Positions 3,951-20,148 of a stretch of DNA of 64,000 nt are shown one piece after another. This DNA is from a virus (taxonomy: Duplodnaviria > Caudoviricetes), in IMG/VR virus record IMGVR_UViG_3300025018_000001, one strand, 5' to 3'. Position 1 is the first letter of the stretch, and the number at the start of each line of letters is the position of its first letter. A program made the position numbers and the translations under genes. The notes under the pieces were generated by a model that saw nothing but the letters and a program-made list of their open reading frames with translations, was not told where the DNA came from and searched no databases.

Positions 3951-4871
3951 TTATTTAGAATTTAAAAATGTTACCATGTCGAGAGCGTCTGAGTATAACA
4001 TAGTATCTAGTGATTCTGGTATGCTGCTTTCTCTTGTAGCATAAAATTCTTTGGCTGCTTCTTCAAAAGAAACATTCTTTGCAGAAAGCCTAGTATTAAT
4101 TGCTACTTTTTGTACCATAGTCAAAGCGTGTTCTGCACCTTTTTCTGAGCTAGGTGTATTAGGAGTACTGGGCATAGACCCTGGCACTGCTGTCATTTTA
4201 GGTAACACACTTGGTCCACTTGGTACACTTGGTACACTTGGTACACTTGGTACACTACCACTTGTGGGTGTTAACACTTTAGCTACTTCCTCTGCAACTG
4301 ATTCTATAGCTGTATTACTCATACCACCTGGAACATTTGGAGTACTTTGCTTGCCTGTTGGTGGTGTCGGTGGTGTAGATGAAAAAGATGGTGGAGTATC
4401 CACCGATGCCGTTGCCCCCATTGGGAAAGCGGTACCTGTTGTAGAATTAGGCATTGCTGTCTTTGGCATAGACGGAGTAAATGATGTACTCGTTGAACTA
4501 TCTGATTCATCATCATCCCCTTCCTCAAGAAATAAGCCTACGCCCCAGTTTCTGGCGGCACTTTTTATAGCCTTTGAAGTTGCTGATTTAAAAACATTAC
4601 CTAAGTCAACACCTCTAAATTTTTTAGCTGAGCCAAACCCATCTTGTTTTGCTAATACTCTACCTTCATCATCATATACTCTAAGTGATGCCAGTACTAA
4701 TACTTCGTCATCAATTACCTTATGTTCTAAAATTTCTAATCCCCAATTACAATTGAAAGCTTTGTTCAACCTATCAAGTACATATTTTGTTTTAACATAC
4801 TTAAACCCCTGTCCTGGTTTTTGGTCAACTTTCAAGTCTTCGTATAATTTATCTATAACATGTTGTTCCAT
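3951..4871 (-). CDS. Rad52/Rad22 (Sak-like) ssDNA annealing protein with Pro/Ser/Thr-rich linker
   Basis: Y V..RLN.AF...W, DGFGS, N.FKSA.S.AIK.AA..WGVG motifs. Confidence 0.85.
   Translation of the reverse strand: MEQHVIDKLYEDLKVDQKPGQGFKYVKTKYVLDRLNKAFNCNWGLEILEHKVIDDEVLVLASLRVYDDEGRVLAKQDGFGSAKKFRGVDLGNVFKSATSKAIKSAARNWGVGLFLEEGDDDESDSSTSTSFTPSMPKTAMPNSTTGTAFPMGATASVDTPPSFSSTPPTPPTGKQSTPNVPGGMSNTAIESVAEEVAKVLTPTSGSVPSVPSVPSVPSGPSVLPKMTAVPGSMPSTPNTPSSEKGAEHALTMVQKVAINTRLSAKNVSFEEAAKEFYATRESSIPESLDTMLYSDALDMVTFLNSK
4208..4256. repeat. 9-bp tandem repeat (CACTTGGTA) x5 plus partial copy, encoding (VPS)n in the Rad52-like linker
   Basis: Read directly from sequence. Confidence 0.95.
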
Positions 4872-5304: not shown

Positions 5305-5505
5305 CTAAAAGCTAGTGGTGTAGTTTTCCTCTGTAGAGTTCTGTATAAACTCGTCTGGGTCAATGAGCTTGTAGCTTATAACCTTATTACCATCTTCATC
5401 AAAAGCATCCACAAAAAGAAAAGCGGACTCGAATGCATCTTCCGACGAAAAATATATTGCTTCAGGTCCATCTTCGGACGATGCAACAAAGTAAACGGCC
5501 TCCAT
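5305..5505 (-). CDS. Acidic hypothetical protein
   Basis: ORF track, AGGAG RBS, TAG TAG double stop. Confidence 0.7.
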   Translation of the reverse strand: MEAVYFVASSEDGPEAIYFSSEDAFESAFLFVDAFDEDGNKVISYKLIDPDEFIQNSTEENYTTSF

Positions 5506-6326: not shown

Positions 6327-6413
6327 CGGATAGAGAGGGATTTGAACCCTCGGTGGCTTTTATACCACACTTGTTTAGCAGACAAGCACCATAGGCCTCT
6401 CGGTCATCTATCC
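6327..6413 (-). tRNA. tRNA-Ser(GCT)
   Basis: Cloverleaf, anticodon arm CTTGT-CT GCT AA-ACAAG, long variable arm, GGTTCAAATCC T-arm. Confidence 0.95.
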
Positions 6414-7864: not shown

Positions 7865-7936
7865 TGCCTCCAGAGGGAATCGAACCCCCGTCACACTATT
7901 TTAGAGGTAGTTGTTCCACCATTGAACTATGAAGGC
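7865..7936 (-). tRNA. Amber suppressor tRNA, anticodon CUA
   Basis: GCCTTCA/TGGAGGC acceptor, GTTC/GAAC D-stem, ACTAC-CT CTA AA-ATAGT anticodon arm (C.A mismatch at 31-39), GGGGG-TTCGATT-CCCTC T-arm, A73. Confidence 0.88.
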
Positions 7937-7948
7937 TTCTAATTTAAA

Positions 7949-7982
7949 TAGAGCCGTACATAAATAGTTAGGTACGGCTCTA
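7949..7982 (-). terminator. 11-bp hairpin between the Pth2-like gene and the suppressor tRNA (weak terminator or processing signal)
   Basis: TAGAGCCGTAC-N12-GTACGGCTCTA followed by TTTAAATT. Confidence 0.55.
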
Positions 7983-8657: not shown

Positions 8658-8699
8658 TTACGGTGACCTAACTACCTAGACGAATCCTGATTTTGTCAT
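8658..8699 (-). promoter_or_regulatory. Leader uORF MTKSGFV-(TAG)-VVRSP-(TAA) with internal amber codon
   Basis: AAAGGAGG-GACT-ATG ACA AAA TCA GGA TTC GTC TAG GTA GTT AGG TCA CCG TAA, followed by AU-rich hairpin 8609-8657. Confidence 0.65.
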
Positions 8700-11862: not shown

Positions 11863-12303
11863 TTATTCACACCAGTCTTTTACTTTTGTCCCTCCATTAT
11901 ACTTAACTGCCAGGCCTTTGTCAAGTAAAATTTCAGCTAAGTTGCCTTCTGATGTAATAACATCTGCAACGATTCTAAAATACTTGCCTCGGCGTGTATT
12001 AAGTAAAGATAGGTATTTGGTATCTCTTAAAGTAACATATACAAGTTCTTTGGCTTCTATAGCTAAATGACGCTCTTTGTCACACTTACCATGTATCTCA
12101 GGTGTATCTATACCATAAACCCTTATGCTTATCTCTTTACCCAAAATGTCCGGTACATCGTCTATATTAACAGTAATAGTGTCACCATCATAATTTCTAA
12201 CCACATGTACAGCATGAAAATCTCCATACGTTTTATCTGTAGCTTGAGCGTTGGTATAGCTTAGTAGTAATATTGTTGTTAGTAAAACTAATAATCTATT
12301 CAT
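11863..12303 (-). CDS. Thermonuclease (SNase family) with signal peptide
   Basis: YDGDT, IRVYGIDTPE, KYFRIVA, GLA; hydrophobic N-terminus. Confidence 0.9.
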   Translation of the reverse strand: MNRLLVLLTTILLLSYTNAQATDKTYGDFHAVHVVRNYDGDTITVNIDDVPDILGKEISIRVYGIDTPEIHGKCDKERHLAIEAKELVYVTLRDTKYLSLLNTRRGKYFRIVADVITSEGNLAEILLDKGLAVKYNGGTKVKDWCE

Positions 12304-12310
12304 ATAAAGC

Positions 12311-12883
12311 CTATTGTAAACGTATAAAATTAGGAGTAGAAAACTTTAGATCCACTTCTCCTATGTCTAGGTGACAGTGCGTATGATGGTTATAAACAGT
12401 ACCAGTGTTTTCTGATAATCTAATACCTGTTAAGTCAAGCTTATATTTCCTAGCTACTGTTCTAAGTTCACTAATTAATACATCATTAACCCTAAAAACT
12501 GTACCTGGAATTATTTGAGATACTCTTAAACAATATATTAAAAATCTTTCAGCATCAAACACACCTCTTTTCAATTTTGTACCTGGGATATCCCACATGT
12601 CTGTGGATTGTCTTCCAGCGGTGCTGTTAGTTTCAAAAGTATAATATCCTTTATCCACTGATATAAACTGTTTATGACTAGCACCAGGATGCCTATCATC
12701 TACGTTTTTATACGTAGAAAAGTCATAGTAACAAGCAACCCTATCTTTTCTGTCTGGGAAATCAAAATATATACTAGCATCAACCAACCATAGGGCTATA
12801 AATCTATTAGCCTCAATGTATCTGTAATCTATATGTCCTATACAACTTTGATACGCCGAATCTCTACAACCTATTACTTTCAT
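12311..12883 (-). CDS. Putative zinc metallopeptidase of LAS type (M15/M74-like), possible murein hydrolase
   Basis: SHKQFISVD (H-x6-D) and HHTHCHLD (HxH). Confidence 0.45.
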   Translation of the reverse strand: MKVIGCRDSAYQSCIGHIDYRYIEANRFIALWLVDASIYFDFPDRKDRVACYYDFSTYKNVDDRHPGASHKQFISVDKGYYTFETNSTAGRQSTDMWDIPGTKLKRGVFDAERFLIYCLRVSQIIPGTVFRVNDVLISELRTVARKYKLDLTGIRLSENTGTVYNHHTHCHLDIGEVDLKFSTPNFIRLQ

Positions 12884-13212
12884 GTTCCTACCACCCTTGC
12901 AATAGTAAAATGTGGAGAACCGTATTGGTCAACAAGCATTTCGTCAGGTCCTAATATTTTCATTTTATAACGCCAACTTTTTATATTGGGGTGATCAGTA
13001 GGTAGTATTAAATGCCCTTGTTCAGGTGCCAGTGTTATCTCTTGTGTTTTTATAATCTTAGAACCATCAGGCCATTCATACCAATGTACAGTAATTTTAT
13101 TTTCTACGCCAGAAGGGTTATCCAAAACAAAGGCTACCCATTGTGGTTTATCATCCTTTATATTTGGGTCTTTTGGGCGACTTGCAAAATAAGGTATCTG
13201 AAATATTTTCAT
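12880..13212 (-). CDS. Hypothetical protein
   Basis: ORF track, AAGGAG RBS. Confidence 0.7.
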   Translation of the reverse strand: MKIFQIPYFASRPKDPNIKDDKPQWVAFVLDNPSGVENKITVHWYEWPDGSKIIKTQEITLAPEQGHLILPTDHPNIKSWRYKMKILGPDEMLVDQYGSPHFTIARVVGT

Positions 13213-13265
13213 TTATTTTCTCCTTTAAATTTTAATTAGTCTTATTATATACAAGACACTTTATT

Positions 13266-13337
13266 AGCGGATACTCGGACTCGAACCGAGATCTTAAGCT
13301 TGGAAGGCTTCAATGCTAACCATTACACCATACCCGC
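13266..13337 (-). tRNA. tRNA-Gly(TCC)
   Basis: GAAGC-CT TCC AA-GCTTA, cloverleaf. Confidence 0.95.
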
Positions 13338-13340
13338 ATT

Positions 13341-13423
13341 CGGAGAGCGTAGGATTTGAACCCACGGGGCTTTCGCCCTTCAGTTTTCAAGACTGATGTC
13401 ATAAGCCACTCGACCAGCTCTCC
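13341..13423 (-). tRNA. tRNA-Ser(TGA)
   Basis: TCAGT-CT TGA AA-ACTGA, long variable arm. Confidence 0.95.
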
Positions 13424-13430
13424 TGTTGTT

Positions 13431-13514
13431 TGGATGCGGTAGGACTCGAACCTACGAAGACCCTAAGGCCGGGAGATTTACAGTCTCCAGCAATTGCCAC
13501 TATGCGACACATCC
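13431..13514 (-). tRNA. tRNA-Tyr(GTA)
   Basis: GGAGA-CT GTA AA-TCTCC, long variable arm. Confidence 0.95.
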
Positions 13515-13521
13515 ATGTATT

Positions 13522-13595
13522 TGGTGCTAGAGGGATTTGAACCCTCGCTGCCGACGTGAAAGGCCGGTGTCCTAACCTAGCTAGACGATAGCACC
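13522..13595 (-). tRNA. tRNA-Glu(TTC)
   Basis: CCGGC-CT TTC AC-GTCGG. Confidence 0.95.
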
Positions 13596-13600
13596 ATGTG

Positions 13601-13673
13601 TTGACCCAGAGAGACTTGAACTCTCGACCTCGGAGTTAAAAGCTCCTTGCTCTACCAACTGAGCTATGGATCA
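13601..13673 (-). tRNA. tRNA-Lys(TTT)
   Basis: GGAG-CT TTT AA-CTCC, TGATCCA/TGGGTCA acceptor. Confidence 0.93.
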
Positions 13674-13679
13674 TTAATT

Positions 13680-13751
13680 TGGACTCGGATGGGATTGAAC
13701 CACCGACGCTCGCCTCTTCAGGGCGACGCTCTACGACTGAGCTACAAGTCC
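13680..13751 (-). tRNA. tRNA-Phe(GAA)
   Basis: TCGCC-CT GAA GA-GGCGA. Confidence 0.95.
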
Positions 13752-13757
13752 AGTGTT

Positions 13758-13830
13758 TAGTTCCAACTGGCATCGAACCAATGTCTCACGATTATCAGTC
13801 GTGTGCTCTAACCAACTGAGCTATGGAACC
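13758..13830 (-). tRNA. tRNA-Ile(GAT)
   Basis: CACGA-CT GAT AA-TCGTG. Confidence 0.95.
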
Positions 13831-13841
13831 ACTAAAAACTA

Positions 13842-14042
13842 TTAAGATATTAATGCTAATTGTTGTCTAATATATCTCATAAATATTATTGCCTTTTCTC
13901 TTGCGGGAAAAGTAGCCTCACCACAATCTACTATAGGCACAGTAAATATAAAATCGGTGTCTTCAACGTGATAGTGAAGATAACCAGCCCTATAGAAATC
14001 AAAACAAACGTACCTATCCTTAACTAATTCTTTAATGTTCAT
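13842..14042 (-). CDS. Small phage hypothetical protein inside the tRNA array (start revised to MNIKEL)
   Basis: AAGGAG RBS after the tRNA; the track start lies within the tRNA. Confidence 0.75.
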   Translation of the reverse strand: MNIKELVKDRYVCFDFYRAGYLHYHVEDTDFIFTVPIVDCGEATFPAREKAIIFMRYIRQQLALIS

Positions 14043-14062
14043 AAATTCTCCTTTAAGTTGTG

Positions 14063-14134
14063 TAGGTAAAGTAGGGGTTGAACCTACGACTTCTAGCATA
14101 TGAGGCTAGCGTTCTACCACTGAACTATTTACCC
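14063..14134 (-). tRNA. tRNA(CAT), elongator Met or Ile2
   Basis: CTAGC-CT CAT AT-GCTAG; lacks initiator GGG/CCC stem. Confidence 0.9.
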
Positions 14135-14140
14135 TTTTTA

Positions 14141-14182
14141 AAACAAAAAAGGCGACTTAGAGTGTTATCCCTAGTCGCCTTT
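14141..14182 (-). terminator. Intrinsic terminator directly upstream of the tRNA array (attenuator)
   Basis: GGCGACTAG-GGATAACACT-CTAAGTCGCC-TTTTTTGTTTT ending 6 nt before the first tRNA. Confidence 0.85.
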
Positions 14183-14206
14183 AGTATATATTTATACTTA
14201 GTTCAA

Positions 14207-14281
14207 CTAGACATAGCAGTACATTCCCTCAATTTTTGAGGAGCCATAAAAGAAAATCTTTTCATAGTTTGTACTAATCAT
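14207..14281 (-). promoter_or_regulatory. Attenuator leader peptide MISTNYEKIFFYGSSKIEGMYCYV-(TAG)
   Basis: Manually translated; AGGT RBS 8 nt upstream; the stop region CTAGTTG can pair with CGACTAG of the terminator 5' arm. Confidence 0.75.
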
Positions 14282-14373
14282 AGTTGTTTACCTAATTTAA
14301 GTTTATTATTACTGCTTATAATATGTATAAGCGAGATATATTATTAATACTACTCCAAGACCACCTAGCAATC

Positions 14374-14679
14374 TTACATAAAAATTACTGAAATAGGGCC
14401 AGGAGCTGCTGGTGCCAAAAAATCCACTGATACGTCCTCTATAATGGAGGGTTCAGACTCGTTAGCTGCGTCATCAATTGCTACAATAGAGAATGTATAA
14501 GTACCATCAAGTGCCGGAGCAATGTTGTTAAGTACGAACTCTATATTACCATCAGCATCAGTAACTAATTCATCCAACAAAAATAGCTTACTATCTGCAG
14601 GATCAGGTCCCCAGGATAGTTTGTATGAAACTACATCTGTTGATGTAGACGGAGCAAAAACTAATTTAACTGTATTCAT
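14374..14679 (-). CDS. Fibronectin type III/Ig-like protein
   Basis: YKLSW, GTYTFSIVAID.AANES, P.APG. Confidence 0.75.
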   Translation of the reverse strand: MNTVKLVFAPSTSTDVVSYKLSWGPDPADSKLFLLDELVTDADGNIEFVLNNIAPALDGTYTFSIVAIDDAANESEPSIIEDVSVDFLAPAAPGPISVIFM

Positions 14680-14730
14680 TATTATTCTCCTTACTATTTA
14701 TTTTTAATTATACAATATTATCTAGGTTAG

Positions 14731-15492
14731 TTAATTAGTAGTATGGCAGTTAGTACATGCTATGCGTTTTTCAGCATGTTTTTTATGGCTTTCACTTACC
14801 CAACTCTTAGAGGAGTGGCAGTTATTACATAAATTTTGCCATGGCATCTCTTTAAAACCTGTTGGATTAACTTCACCTGTAGGTGGTACTGGTGTGTTAT
14901 CCTCATCATTACTACCTATTAAATCACCAGAACCTACCCTTACATGACACTCTAAACAGCCCTGATGTACTAAATAATCTTCAGCTTTAAACCCAGGTGT
15001 AGCGTGTGGGTAATGACAAGTTTTACATTTAATTATGTCACCCTTAAGTAATACTGCTATACCAGTACCTGAAGTAATTTCATTACCACTCATAGGGTCT
15101 TTTACAAAACCCCCATTACCATCAGACACTTTACGTCCAACAGGCTGAAAATCATATTGAGAACATATAAATCTATCCGAAACTACTACAGCATCCTTAC
15201 CATTATGGCAAGGCGTACATGCAGTTATTCCTTCTCTCTTAACTCTATTACCATGGTTAACACCATGAGCATTACCTGGAGAAGGTAAAAATTCAACTAC
15301 TGGTGGCTCAGGGTCTGGGCATACTATCGGATCTGGACATATAGTTGGATCTTCACAAGGTGTACATAGTGGTGGACTATCCAGAGTAAGTGTTTGTCCC
15401 TCTTCAGCACTAAACCATACCTTATCAGCAGCACTAGCTATTGATAAACATAAAAGTGTTAATACAAAAGCGATGCCAATGATCTTCTTCAT
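14731..15492 (-). CDS. Secreted multiheme (5x CxxCH) c-type cytochrome
   Basis: Sec signal peptide MKKIIGIAFVLTLLCLSIASA; CTPCH, CKTCH, CLECH, CNNCH, CTNCH; extra His as distal ligands. Confidence 0.92.
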   Translation of the reverse strand: MKKIIGIAFVLTLLCLSIASAADKVWFSAEEGQTLTLDSPPLCTPCEDPTICPDPIVCPDPEPPVVEFLPSPGNAHGVNHGNRVKREGITACTPCHNGKDAVVVSDRFICSQYDFQPVGRKVSDGNGGFVKDPMSGNEITSGTGIAVLLKGDIIKCKTCHYPHATPGFKAEDYLVHQGCLECHVRVGSGDLIGSNDEDNTPVPPTGEVNPTGFKEMPWQNLCNNCHSSKSWVSESHKKHAEKRIACTNCHTTN

Positions 15493-15526
15493 TTTTTTTT
15501 ATCCTTTAATTTAAGTTAGTAAAACA

Positions 15527-15555
15527 ATTATACTACATTATTTAAACACTGTCAA
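15527..15555 (-). promoter_or_regulatory. Consensus sigma70 promoter of the cytochrome gene
   Basis: TTGACA-N17-TATAAT. Confidence 0.85.
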
Positions 15556-15559
15556 TAAA

Positions 15560-16441
15560 TTAAATCTGAATAAATGGTTTATTAAGGTTATCCTCACTAC
15601 AAATAAGCTGAGGAGTTTGCTCAAATCTGCGCTTTCTTAAAAGTTCTTCTGCTTTATCACGTAAAGTTTTCAAATCAATTGTTGGATTTTGTAGTAGTAA
15701 TCCTTGTACTACGTAAGATAAAGCTCCCTGATACCTATTAGTAAAGTAAGCATCAGCAGATGTTTGGTCGTCACTACAACCAGTTATAATAGAAATATTA
15801 TGTTTACTATAACTAGGTGGGCTTATAGGTATAATAGGCTCTGGTTGAAATAGGAAGTCAAAAAAGTTTTTATTTAAATCATCCTCGCCAAAAGATGATG
15901 TTGGATCAAATAAATCTTTTGTTAAAGTTGCGTCCGATACACGGGACATTAAATCTAAAGGTGTAGGAATTTGTTTTACTAACCTATCTTTAGGTATAGC
16001 AGCTCTGTCAATAGAACCACTATGACATGCATCTACAACCATAGCTATATGGTGATTATCTTTCAATTTTTTCATTAACCTGGCTATCTGGTTATCCAAA
16101 ATGTAGTTACCTTCCCAATTAAAGTCAACTGGGCACATAAGTTCATCCATAGAGTCAGGTTCATAGTTATCTTCCGAGTAATCTTGTGTAGGAATTTGTG
16201 CTCCATGACCTGAGTAGTAGAACATTTTATTCTCAGCATCATTTGTTATCAACCATTCCATTCTTTCCATTATATTATCTTTTGTAGCACGCTCATCTAA
16301 TATTAATCTTATCTGGTTTGCAGGAACTTTATAAATCTTAACTAATATATCCCGCATTATGATAACATCGTTAACACAACCGTTGAGTGGGCAATCAGGG
16401 TATTTATTAATACCTACAAGAACTGCACTAAAATTAGACAT
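15560..16441 (-). CDS. Caspase-family protease (Peptidase C14, metacaspase-like)
   Basis: VGINKY, L.GCVND, YYSGHG, VDACHSG, GCSDDQTSAD, GALS. Confidence 0.93.
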   Translation of the reverse strand: MSNFSAVLVGINKYPDCPLNGCVNDVIIMRDILVKIYKVPANQIRLILDERATKDNIMERMEWLITNDAENKMFYYSGHGAQIPTQDYSEDNYEPDSMDELMCPVDFNWEGNYILDNQIARLMKKLKDNHHIAMVVDACHSGSIDRAAIPKDRLVKQIPTPLDLMSRVSDATLTKDLFDPTSSFGEDDLNKNFFDFLFQPEPIIPISPPSYSKHNISIITGCSDDQTSADAYFTNRYQGALSYVVQGLLLQNPTIDLKTLRDKAEELLRKRRFEQTPQLICSEDNLNKPFIQI

Positions 16442-19674: not shown

Positions 19675-20148
19675 TTACAAAATTACATCTCCCTGCTGTT
19701 GGTCTTCTTGTTGTTCGTAAACAGCTAGGGTCAACTCTGTTAATTTAGATGCCCAATTAGGGTCATCAGCATTTTTTTGGAGTTCTGCTGCAAAATCTTC
19801 TACATCGTGTCCAACTAATTTTAATTTTCCCTTTTCATTAAATACAATATGATTAAGTTCATGTGAAATTATTCTCTTCCTATCCTGTTCAGAAGCATAC
19901 TGCCAAGCTAGTGCGTCAATAATAACTATACAGTCATAACCCTCTGGAATACCGTCATCAGTTGTAAAGAATTTTACCTTTTCATTAGCTAATTCTACAG
20001 AGGCTAATGTAATATTACCTTTGTACACCCGCTTTTTAGTATCAAAAATAAGTTTAAAATTTAAACCTTCCAACCAGTTAAACTCGGTGTTTAAAACGTT
20101 GGCAAAGGTGGTCTCTAAAAGCTCGTCGGAATCAAGGTATCTGTTCAT
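19675..20148 (-). CDS. Putative phage metallopeptidase
   Basis: HELNH and GHDVEDF motifs. Confidence 0.8.
   Translation of the reverse strand: MNRYLDSDELLETTFANVLNTEFNWLEGLNFKLIFDTKKRVYKGNITLASVELANEKVKFFTTDDGIPEGYDCIVIIDALAWQYASEQDRKRIISHELNHIVFNEKGKLKLVGHDVEDFAAELQKNADDPNWASKLTELTLAVYEQQEDQQQGDVIL

Follow-up and report, generated by a model that had tools for sequence, protein, structure and literature searches.

A putative ribosome-mediated attenuator, conserved in three related giant phages, precedes a phage transfer RNA operon

Classical leader-peptide attenuators include those responding to a single amino acid (trpL, hisL, leuL and pheL) and the multivalent leaders of enterobacteria, where ilvGMEDA senses Ile, Val and Leu, and thr senses Thr and Ile. 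Tandem runs of the regulatory codons are typical of these classical attenuators. Attenuation by charged transfer RNA (tRNA) supply also controls phenylalanyl-tRNA synthetase, through the pheM leader of Escherichia coli pheST. Why phages carry tRNA genes has been debated for decades, codon compensation and escape from tRNA-cleaving defences being the two explanations, and to our knowledge almost nothing is known of how these genes are regulated. The literature that we searched contained no description of leader-peptide attenuation of tRNA genes, whether phage or bacterial. Here we describe a locus on the minus strand of a 64,000-nucleotide (nt) stretch of tailed phage DNA (hereafter the window; IMG/VR record IMGVR_UViG_3300025018_000001) in which a 24-codon leader open reading frame (ORF) and an intrinsic terminator precede eight tRNA genes. 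In our reading it is probably a ribosome-mediated, trp-type leader-peptide attenuator that controls the transcription of a phage tRNA operon. The arrangement is kept in three related giant phages.

Read along the minus strand, a Shine-Dalgarno-like AGGT (14290-14293) is followed after 8 nt by an ATG at 14281, the ORF, an AU hairpin, the terminator and, at 14134, the first tRNA gene, with anticodon CAT. The ORF (14207-14281), to which a first-pass annotation made from the letters of the window had drawn attention, is indeed present: it encodes MISTNYEKIFFYGSSKIEGMYCYV in 24 codons and ends in TAG (14209-14207). Like the leaders of known attenuators, this short ORF lies upstream of the putatively regulated genes and has its own start codon and ribosome-binding site. 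Relatives were reached through the neighbours of DnaK and nuclease homologues, the nuclease profile yielding L021 from the viral collection, and two of them carry the same module. L004 (IMG/VR 3300028549, 161 kb; DnaK 82% identical) has a leader starting with the ATG at 19784 (L004:19784-19855; MNKNYSKGFISYKEEKSSMGWFI-TAG), a terminator, and then genes for tRNA-Met, Phe, Lys and Glu, a degenerate Tyr-like gene, and Ser and Gly. L021 (IMG/VR 3300035698, 228 kb) has its leader at L021:4425-4505 (MTNEKSESFKMYESYSIESKQRDSFV-TAG), followed by a terminator, tRNA-Ile, Phe, Glu and Ser, a nuclease gene and tRNA-Tyr. The L004, L007, L020 and L022 entries are one contig; over 13200-14700, L008 and L010 do not differ from the window, and they are not independent of it.

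In a DNA alignment of the three phages the Shine-Dalgarno site, the ATG, a TCTAG at the stop codon and the terminator are conserved and the interior of the ORF is not. The frame nevertheless remains open in both relatives, for 23 codons in L004 and 26 in L021, with an in-frame TAG and a Shine-Dalgarno site (aligned AAGGA and AGGA, respectively) 8-9 nt 5′ of the aligned ATG. Just 12-13% of shuffles give an open frame of such length, and a shared frame for ATG and TAG is a further requirement; retention of the ORF in two further diverged sequences is therefore unlikely to be due to chance.

The leader had been described as spelled in the amino acids of the tRNAs downstream. This proved accurate for residues 6-21, which include all eight of these amino acids and no others; over the whole peptide the set accounts for 20 of 24 residues. 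As the same eight amino acids make up a fraction of 0.447 of residues in the long ORFs of the window, the binomial P for this count is 1e-4. No other ORF among the 474 of 18-35 codons in the window attains 20/24 or more, and only 3 of 127,858 sliding 24-codon windows, taken in all six frames, have 20 residues in the set. The other five frames of the leader DNA contain 6-14, making the bias frame-specific, and mononucleotide shuffles of the ORF interior attain the observed value in 0.015% of trials (P = 1.5e-4). Together, the frame test, the shuffles and the window scans argue that neither AT-richness nor local nucleotide composition is the cause of the bias.

The peptides of the three leaders differ, and the composition bias is retained: measured with the window's set, it amounts to 20/23 residues in L004 (P = 3e-5; 5e-5 by shuffling) and 20/26 in L021 (P = 9e-4; 2e-4 by shuffling). 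In covering the 47 non-initiator residues of the L004 and L021 leaders, just 10 of the 125,970 possible sets of eight amino acids match the one given by the tRNAs of the window. Leu, the commonest residue of the proteome, is absent from all 73 residues of the three leaders, as are Ala, Pro and His. Under wobble rules, strictly cognate codons number 16/23 in the window, 15/22 in L004 and 16/25 in L021, against a background of 0.33. The count of 16 in the window leaves out AGT, TCC and GGC, which the Ser and Gly tRNAs of the array do not read. ATA, which tRNA-Ile(GAT) is unable to read, accounts for 54% of Ile codons in the phage but for none of the six in the leaders. Scattered over the genome of the L021 phage are at least eight further tRNA genes (Leu, Gln, Arg, Thr, Pro, Asn and two Met); the amino acids of these tRNAs seldom occur in its leader, and no terminator or leader-like element was found before them. 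Nor was a leader-like element found before tRNA-Ser(GCT) at 6413 in the window. Judged from these sequences, the leader match is specific to the array.

RNA structures were predicted as minimum-free-energy folds of single sequences. A consensus computed with MAFFT and RNAalifold recovered the terminator and one ORF hairpin (hairpin B) alone, the alignment not being structure-aware. The proposed intrinsic terminator was borne out (14182 to 14140, hairpin plus U-tract; free energy, dG, -18.6; z -5.1). It consists of a 14-pair GC-rich hairpin (14182-14148) running into TTTTTTGTTTT, whose U-tract has the form T6GT4, and is followed by five A and then by tRNA-Met. The transcript can be divided into four pairing segments. 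Segment 1 (14270-14286) forms the 5′ strand of a long-range stem and contains the start codon. Segment 2 (14204-14223), with the stop codon inside, is the 3′ strand of that stem and may have either segment 1 or segment 3 as its partner. Segment 3 (14169-14182) is the 5′ arm of the terminator and a look-alike of segment 1 (CGACUAGG compared with CAACUAUG), and segment 4 (14140-14162) comprises the 3′ arm of the terminator together with its U-tract; a pattern scan picked out the homologous terminator of L021 as well. Between segments 1 and 2, and within the ORF, lie hairpin A (14244-14267), with a hairpin at the equivalent place in L004 and L021, and hairpin B (14226-14242), whose CCUC/GAGG stem has its arms swapped in L004 (GAGG...CCUC) and reads CUCU...AGAG in L021. 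The small AU hairpin (14183-14198) caps the antiterminator.

That antiterminator, proposed at first pass as a pairing of the stop region with CGACUAG of the terminator 5′ arm, is the predicted fold when the terminator 3′ arm is withheld. It forms in all three phages, with dG of -16.4 in the window, -17.6 in L004 and -18.8 in L021. A second pairing had been overlooked, that of the start-codon region with the stop-codon region, enclosing the two ORF hairpins. This long stem and the terminator are both present in the fold of each full-length RNA (z-scores -6.2 in the window, -5.2 in L004 and -5.6 in L021). Segments 1 and 3, which are alike, compete for segment 2. In an unbiased duplex scan the terminator arm finds its top partner at the stop codon, and segment 2 its top upstream partner at the ATG, in 3/3 phages. 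The pairing strands of segments 1, 2 and 3 are CAACUAUGAU, GUCUAGUUG and CGACUAGG in the window; AACGAC, CUAGUCGUU and GGCGACUAG in L004; and GACAAACGA, UCGUUUGUC(UAG) and (CUAGG)GAAACGA in L021. They include compensated changes: CAAC/GUUG in the window corresponds to CGAC/GUCG in L004 and to ACAAACGA/UCGUUUGU/GGAAACGA in L021. By prediction, then, the locus has the mutually exclusive 1:2, 2:3 and 3:4 pairings of an attenuator, with the ORF ending in segment 2.

Strong and conserved folds (z -5 to -6), compensated stems, a hairpin B that flips its orientation and substitutions which, in a close variant, fall mainly in loops would also suit an untranslated structured leader, that is, a three-way junction in which a ligand, a protein or a tRNA switches between the closing stem and the antiterminator and the ORF is incidental. 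A scan of the window against Rfam (at the gathering score and also at E <= 10) lends this no help: no family besides tRNAs reaches its gathering score, and there is no match to a T-box or riboswitch model. The top non-tRNA match, the antisense of tRNA-Met set aside, has E = 0.1 and is owed to resemblance to the terminator; sub-threshold trpB and STnc40 matches likewise reflect terminator shape and were rejected. The loops and junctions differ in sequence among the three leader RNAs, unlike ligand pockets, which argues against a ligand-binding aptamer. The Shine-Dalgarno site, ATG, frame and open ORF are moreover kept in three diverged sequences, and the composition bias belongs to that frame. 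We consider an untranslated switch quite unlikely.

If the locus works as a trp-type attenuator, its segments suggest the following course of events. In a ribosome-free leader, segments 1:2 and 3:4 would pair and transcription would stop. A fast ribosome reaching the stop codon would cover segment 2, again leaving 3:4 to pair and terminate. A ribosome lingering early, over about the first nine codons, would mask segment 1, and the freed segment 2 would capture segment 3; this 2:3 pairing would block the terminator and let RNA polymerase read into tRNA-Met, a small protein gene (orf66) and the remaining seven tRNA genes. As its leader is made up of codons that the array tRNAs read, the switch would gauge the decoding speed of just those codons, and slow decoding would yield more array transcript, a negative feedback on tRNA supply. 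The same switch could answer the loss of tRNAs through host defences.

Transcription of the first tRNA gene bears on this scheme. The earlier annotation had named a separate promoter between terminator and tRNA as evidence that would speak against it; a promoter was sought in this interval of the window and no promoter-like site was found there. The distance from the U-tract to the first tRNA is just 3-11 nt across the three phages, and the first tRNA would for this reason be made by read-through alone. A T4-type late promoter motif, TATAAATA, in the gap between ORF and terminator (14196 to 14189) was discarded, as it is not enriched in the window (24 found, 19.6 expected). Upstream of the leader, a weak sigma-70-like candidate on the minus strand, TTAATA-N18-TATTAT (14318-14347), agrees with the consensus at 9/12 positions, a level to be expected by chance in DNA this rich in AT; a 9/12 site in the corresponding place precedes the L021 leader. 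A leader transcript may start at this candidate, and read-through from the upstream gene is equally possible. That gene, on the same strand, encodes a 101-residue immunoglobulin-like (Ig-like) protein and ends at 14374, leaving a spacer of 92 nt to the AGGT.

The weak promoter evidence for a separate leader transcript would also fit an ordinary terminator of the upstream unit, whose leaky read-through feeds the tRNAs and in front of which the ORF is a micro-protein gene or a chance frame. There is another terminator-like hairpin before a tRNA in the window (GAGCCGTAC...GTACGGCTC, then TATTT; 7950-7980, minus strand), which lies about 13 nt 5′ of a suppressor tRNA gene. Such an explanation sits poorly with L004, where the upstream gene is different and the leader-terminator-tRNA unit is kept; the module thus belongs with the tRNAs and not with the upstream gene. 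Nor does it account for an ORF and a composition that are preserved when the peptide sequence is not, for alternative pairings at the start and stop codons in 3/3 phages, or for a terminator about 190 nt past the upstream stop codon. We judge it distinctly improbable.

The stop codon itself admits a different role. TAG is used by 11/71 ORFs of the window, yet it ends all three leaders, and amber-suppressor tRNA genes (CTA) occur across the lineage (window 7865-7936, minus strand; L007:12648-12721; L021:9812-9888; and also L035 and L036). Read-through of the leader stop could then reposition the ribosome and alter termination, and in L004 a ribosome passing the TAG would meet its next in-frame stop 4 nt 5′ of the terminator stem. 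The TAG is, however, part of the conserved CUAG pairing motif, which provides a structural reason for its conservation; the next in-frame stop is placed very differently in the three phages; and TAG is not recoded in genes. Recoding in the window's phage, which uses the standard genetic code, was rejected since reading TAG as Gln merges 0 ORFs. Control by amber suppression thus appears highly improbable. In the window a second mini-ORF, MTKSGFV-TAG (8676-8699, minus strand), with a strong ribosome-binding site, lies 5′ of Pth2-like genes and of the suppressor tRNA. Its beginning resembles that of the L021 leader (MT.K.S) and its end, FV-TAG, that of the leaders, with no GC-rich terminator 3′ of it; it looks like a truncated leader paralogue.

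Several observations weigh against reading the locus as a codon-matched attenuator. The codons of the eight families are interleaved in the leader, with doublets at most (FF, SS, EE) and no tandem runs. Asn is frequent in the leaders, yet tRNA-Asn is found in no array. The Shine-Dalgarno site of the window (AGGT) is weak, and the most stable predicted fold hides the start codon within the 1:2 stem, so that translation of the leader would need co-transcriptional ribosome loading. We infer translation, stalling, termination efficiency and physiological trigger from the sequence. The array is split in the window by orf66, and the choice of Ser, Glu and Gly codons is in part dictated by hairpin B.

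Co-variation between leader and array, which the first-pass annotation had put forward as a check, is weak. L004 is without tRNA-Ile, yet its leader has two Ile codons, and the L021 array is without Met, Lys and Gly tRNAs, while its leader is without Gly only and includes three Lys and one internal Met. The L021 array also contains promoter-like sites with 11/12 and 12/12 matches, of sigma-70 type, at 4740-4767 before tRNA-Glu and at 5374-5402 before tRNA-Tyr, the latter in the 3′ end of the nuclease gene. Some L021 tRNAs may for this reason escape the switch, tRNA-Ile and tRNA-Phe alone being strictly dependent on it; near-perfect and perfect matches of this kind also suggest that these phages use host-type promoters. 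Of the trp-type attenuator proposed at first pass, the ORF, ribosome-binding site, terminator, antiterminator and composition are thus kept in two relatives, and the expected co-variation is poor.

A 96%-identical variant of 14063-14320 was found in wastewater runs X22, X23 and X25, on short contigs labelled RNA-Seq and flagged as probably DNA; wastewater is remote from the aquifer and cold-spring samples that gave the window. Its leader has the substitutions I2T, S3C, I9N, K16N and I17Y, four of which leave the set and reduce it to 16/24. The ORF is intact and all three Ile codons are lost; one synonymous change occurs in 1/3 runs. As most changes lie in hairpin loops or strengthen pairs, RNA structure would fit as the stronger constraint, and codon identity would be loosely held in this lineage, unless its array differs.

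Some of these observations are what one would expect if the attenuator were coupled to translation without codon specificity, the leader reporting general translation capacity and its bias stemming from RNA structure and history. Hairpins within the ORF do force codons, the CCUC/GAGG arms giving Ser, Glu and Gly; the wastewater variant alters five residues, four out of the set, and keeps the ORF and most base pairs; and array content co-varies poorly with the leader. Such an origin leaves unexplained a bias that is frame-specific and above nucleotide shuffles in all three leaders, an array set that fits far better than nearly any other set of eight amino acids, an avoidance of ATA that agrees with tRNA-Ile(GAT), and the lack of enrichment for amino acids of the phage's other tRNAs. 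We regard a codon-unspecific switch as rather unlikely, and retain the codon-matched attenuator as the preferred reading.

The usual trigger of a codon-matched attenuator may be the poor fit of AT-rich phage codons to the tRNA pool of the host, or it may be injury to the host's tRNAs by defence nucleases. The first-pass proposal of an eight-tRNA sensor serving as an on-demand counter-defence is plausible but unproven, and is partly contradicted by the loose co-variation of leader and array. A trigger by anticodon nucleases is pure inference, plain supply-and-demand feedback accounting for the same anatomy. A broader proposition may be offered tentatively, and with less than even confidence: that phage tRNA operons are gated by codon-matched attenuators, a widespread and unpublished class acting as a sensor of attack on translation. 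The present example would be an eight-channel meter of decoding speed, switched on when any matching host tRNA is scarce, tRNAs cut by defence nucleases included.

The eight tRNA genes of the first-pass annotation were recovered with ARAGORN and Infernal (Met-CAT, Ile-GAT, Phe-GAA, Lys-TTT, Glu-TTC, Tyr-GTA, Ser-TGA and Gly-TCC), all on the minus strand. They do not form a single uninterrupted array: tRNA(CAT) (14062-14134; 71.8 bits) is parted by orf66 (13842-14042), a 66-codon protein gene with a strong Shine-Dalgarno site, from the seven tightly packed tRNAs, Ile to Gly (13266-13831). The first of these genes is without initiator features and is not an initiator but an elongator Met or Ile2 tRNA. 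orf66 is absent from L004 and L021. What would be regulated is thus neither amino acid biosynthesis nor a synthetase but eight tRNA genes and a small ORF. In L004, a tRNA-Phe gene (L004:20004-20075) reaches 59 bits by Infernal and is missed by ARAGORN, and the Tyr-like gene with a GTA anticodon (L004:20386-20470), detected by neither program, may be decaying. A tRNA-model match in the L021 phage spans 147 nt (G002:C1:53562-53708; L123:12063-12209) and may be an intron-containing or otherwise interrupted tRNA.

The genome of the window's phage, which comes from metagenomes of aquifer and cold-spring origin, is about 264 kb in length and has 34% GC. Genes for DnaK, a ClpB-like ATPase, PolA and ribonucleotide reductase are present. 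The nearest relatives of its DnaK are Desulfobulbales DnaK proteins, and it carries a gene for a secreted multihaem cytochrome c with several CxxCH motifs (14731-15492, minus strand), which is kept in L021 (L021:3392-4003); together these hint at a Desulfobacterota host. The ‘moraphages’ of PMC12619734, which also carry DnaK, are of another lineage, with Bacteroidota hosts.

The whole block containing the multihaem cytochrome, Ig-like gene, leader, tRNAs and two small genes (11863-16441) is an insertion or deletion. It sits between genes for a caspase-like peptidase and a staphylococcal-nuclease-like protein, which adjoin one another in L005 (L005:17051-18394), L006 and L036 (L036:900-1820). 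These three relatives have no array and likewise no module. Across the stop codon of the Ig-like gene, in the -1 frame, runs a hydrophobic, transmembrane-like stretch, LLGGLGVVLIIYLAYTYYKQ (14309-14371, minus strand), which ends in three tandem stops; its overlap with the Ig-like gene is at a run of five T, and the same frame is kept in L021 (LLKGLGLILILYIVYKYCI; L021:4338-4403). It may reflect a programmed frameshift adding a membrane anchor, or a small separate ORF.

Further searches added no member to the family. None resulted from the two flanking proteins in IMG/VR, from a scan of metagenome, viral and genome collections for the terminator pattern, or from a tRNA-Lys pattern search and a profile search with the caspase-like protein, and the nuclease profile gave 80 loci in the metagenome collection, 0 of them with the module. 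Among contigs carrying homologues of the Ig-like protein, L116 and L119 are differently arranged, L118 and L120 are without tRNA genes, and L121 and L122 stop short of the leader.

Compared with described systems, the locus most resembles leaders of the ilv, thr and trpL type. It shares with them a short ORF preceded by a ribosome-binding site, an intrinsic terminator that no promoter follows, the choice among 1:2, 2:3 and 3:4 pairings, a stop codon within or adjacent to segment 2, enrichment in the putatively sensed codons and a peptide whose sequence is itself unimportant. It differs in that phage tRNA genes, and not biosynthetic genes, would be controlled, in that the codon families number eight instead of one to three and are scattered without tandem runs, and in that the start codon lies in segment 1, the whole ORF occupying the loop of the 1:2 stem. 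With pheST it has in common a leader-peptide attenuator acting on a component of the decoding machinery and responsive to charged tRNA supply; in pheST it is a synthetase and not a tRNA that is controlled, a single amino acid is sensed, and the system is bacterial and not viral. The pheL leaders are among those discussed in PMC3082878. In T-box riboswitches, too, terminator read-through is set by tRNA status through the choice between antiterminator and terminator, but they bind uncharged tRNA directly and need no translation, whereas here an ORF and a Shine-Dalgarno site are conserved.

Phage tRNAs have been treated as countermeasures to tRNA-targeting defences in PMC10264068, PMC11464382 and PMC11555353. 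Such work supplies a reason why the supply of particular tRNAs, those for Lys and Tyr among them, matters to a phage; what would be new here is the regulation. Similar cassettes may exist in a cultured phage, Caulobacter phage phiCbK (NC_019405), in whose GenBank record terminators are annotated directly 5′ of tRNA blocks. Its gp335 (45 residues), which precedes genes for Pro, Pro, Lys, Lys, Leu (three) and Ser (two) tRNAs, has 23/44 residues that are P, K, L or S, against a background of 0.24 (P = 5e-5), and a 32-residue ORF before Phe, Val, Ile, Ile, Val, Gln and Gln shows modest enrichment (P about 0.01). The likeness lies in a mini-ORF and terminator before tRNA blocks; the sequences are unrelated and phiCbK is GC-rich. 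Cultured phages of this kind would open the idea to experiment.

If the interpretation is true, a phage monitors the decoding of exactly the codons of its array and adjusts tRNA supply, and attenuation extends from metabolism to the translation apparatus of a virus. Predictions would follow on which host tRNAs limit infection, and the leader would represent a natural multi-input sensor of translation speed. Set against the described attenuators, the new elements would be the target, which is viral tRNA genes, the eight codon families, and the start codon within segment 1.

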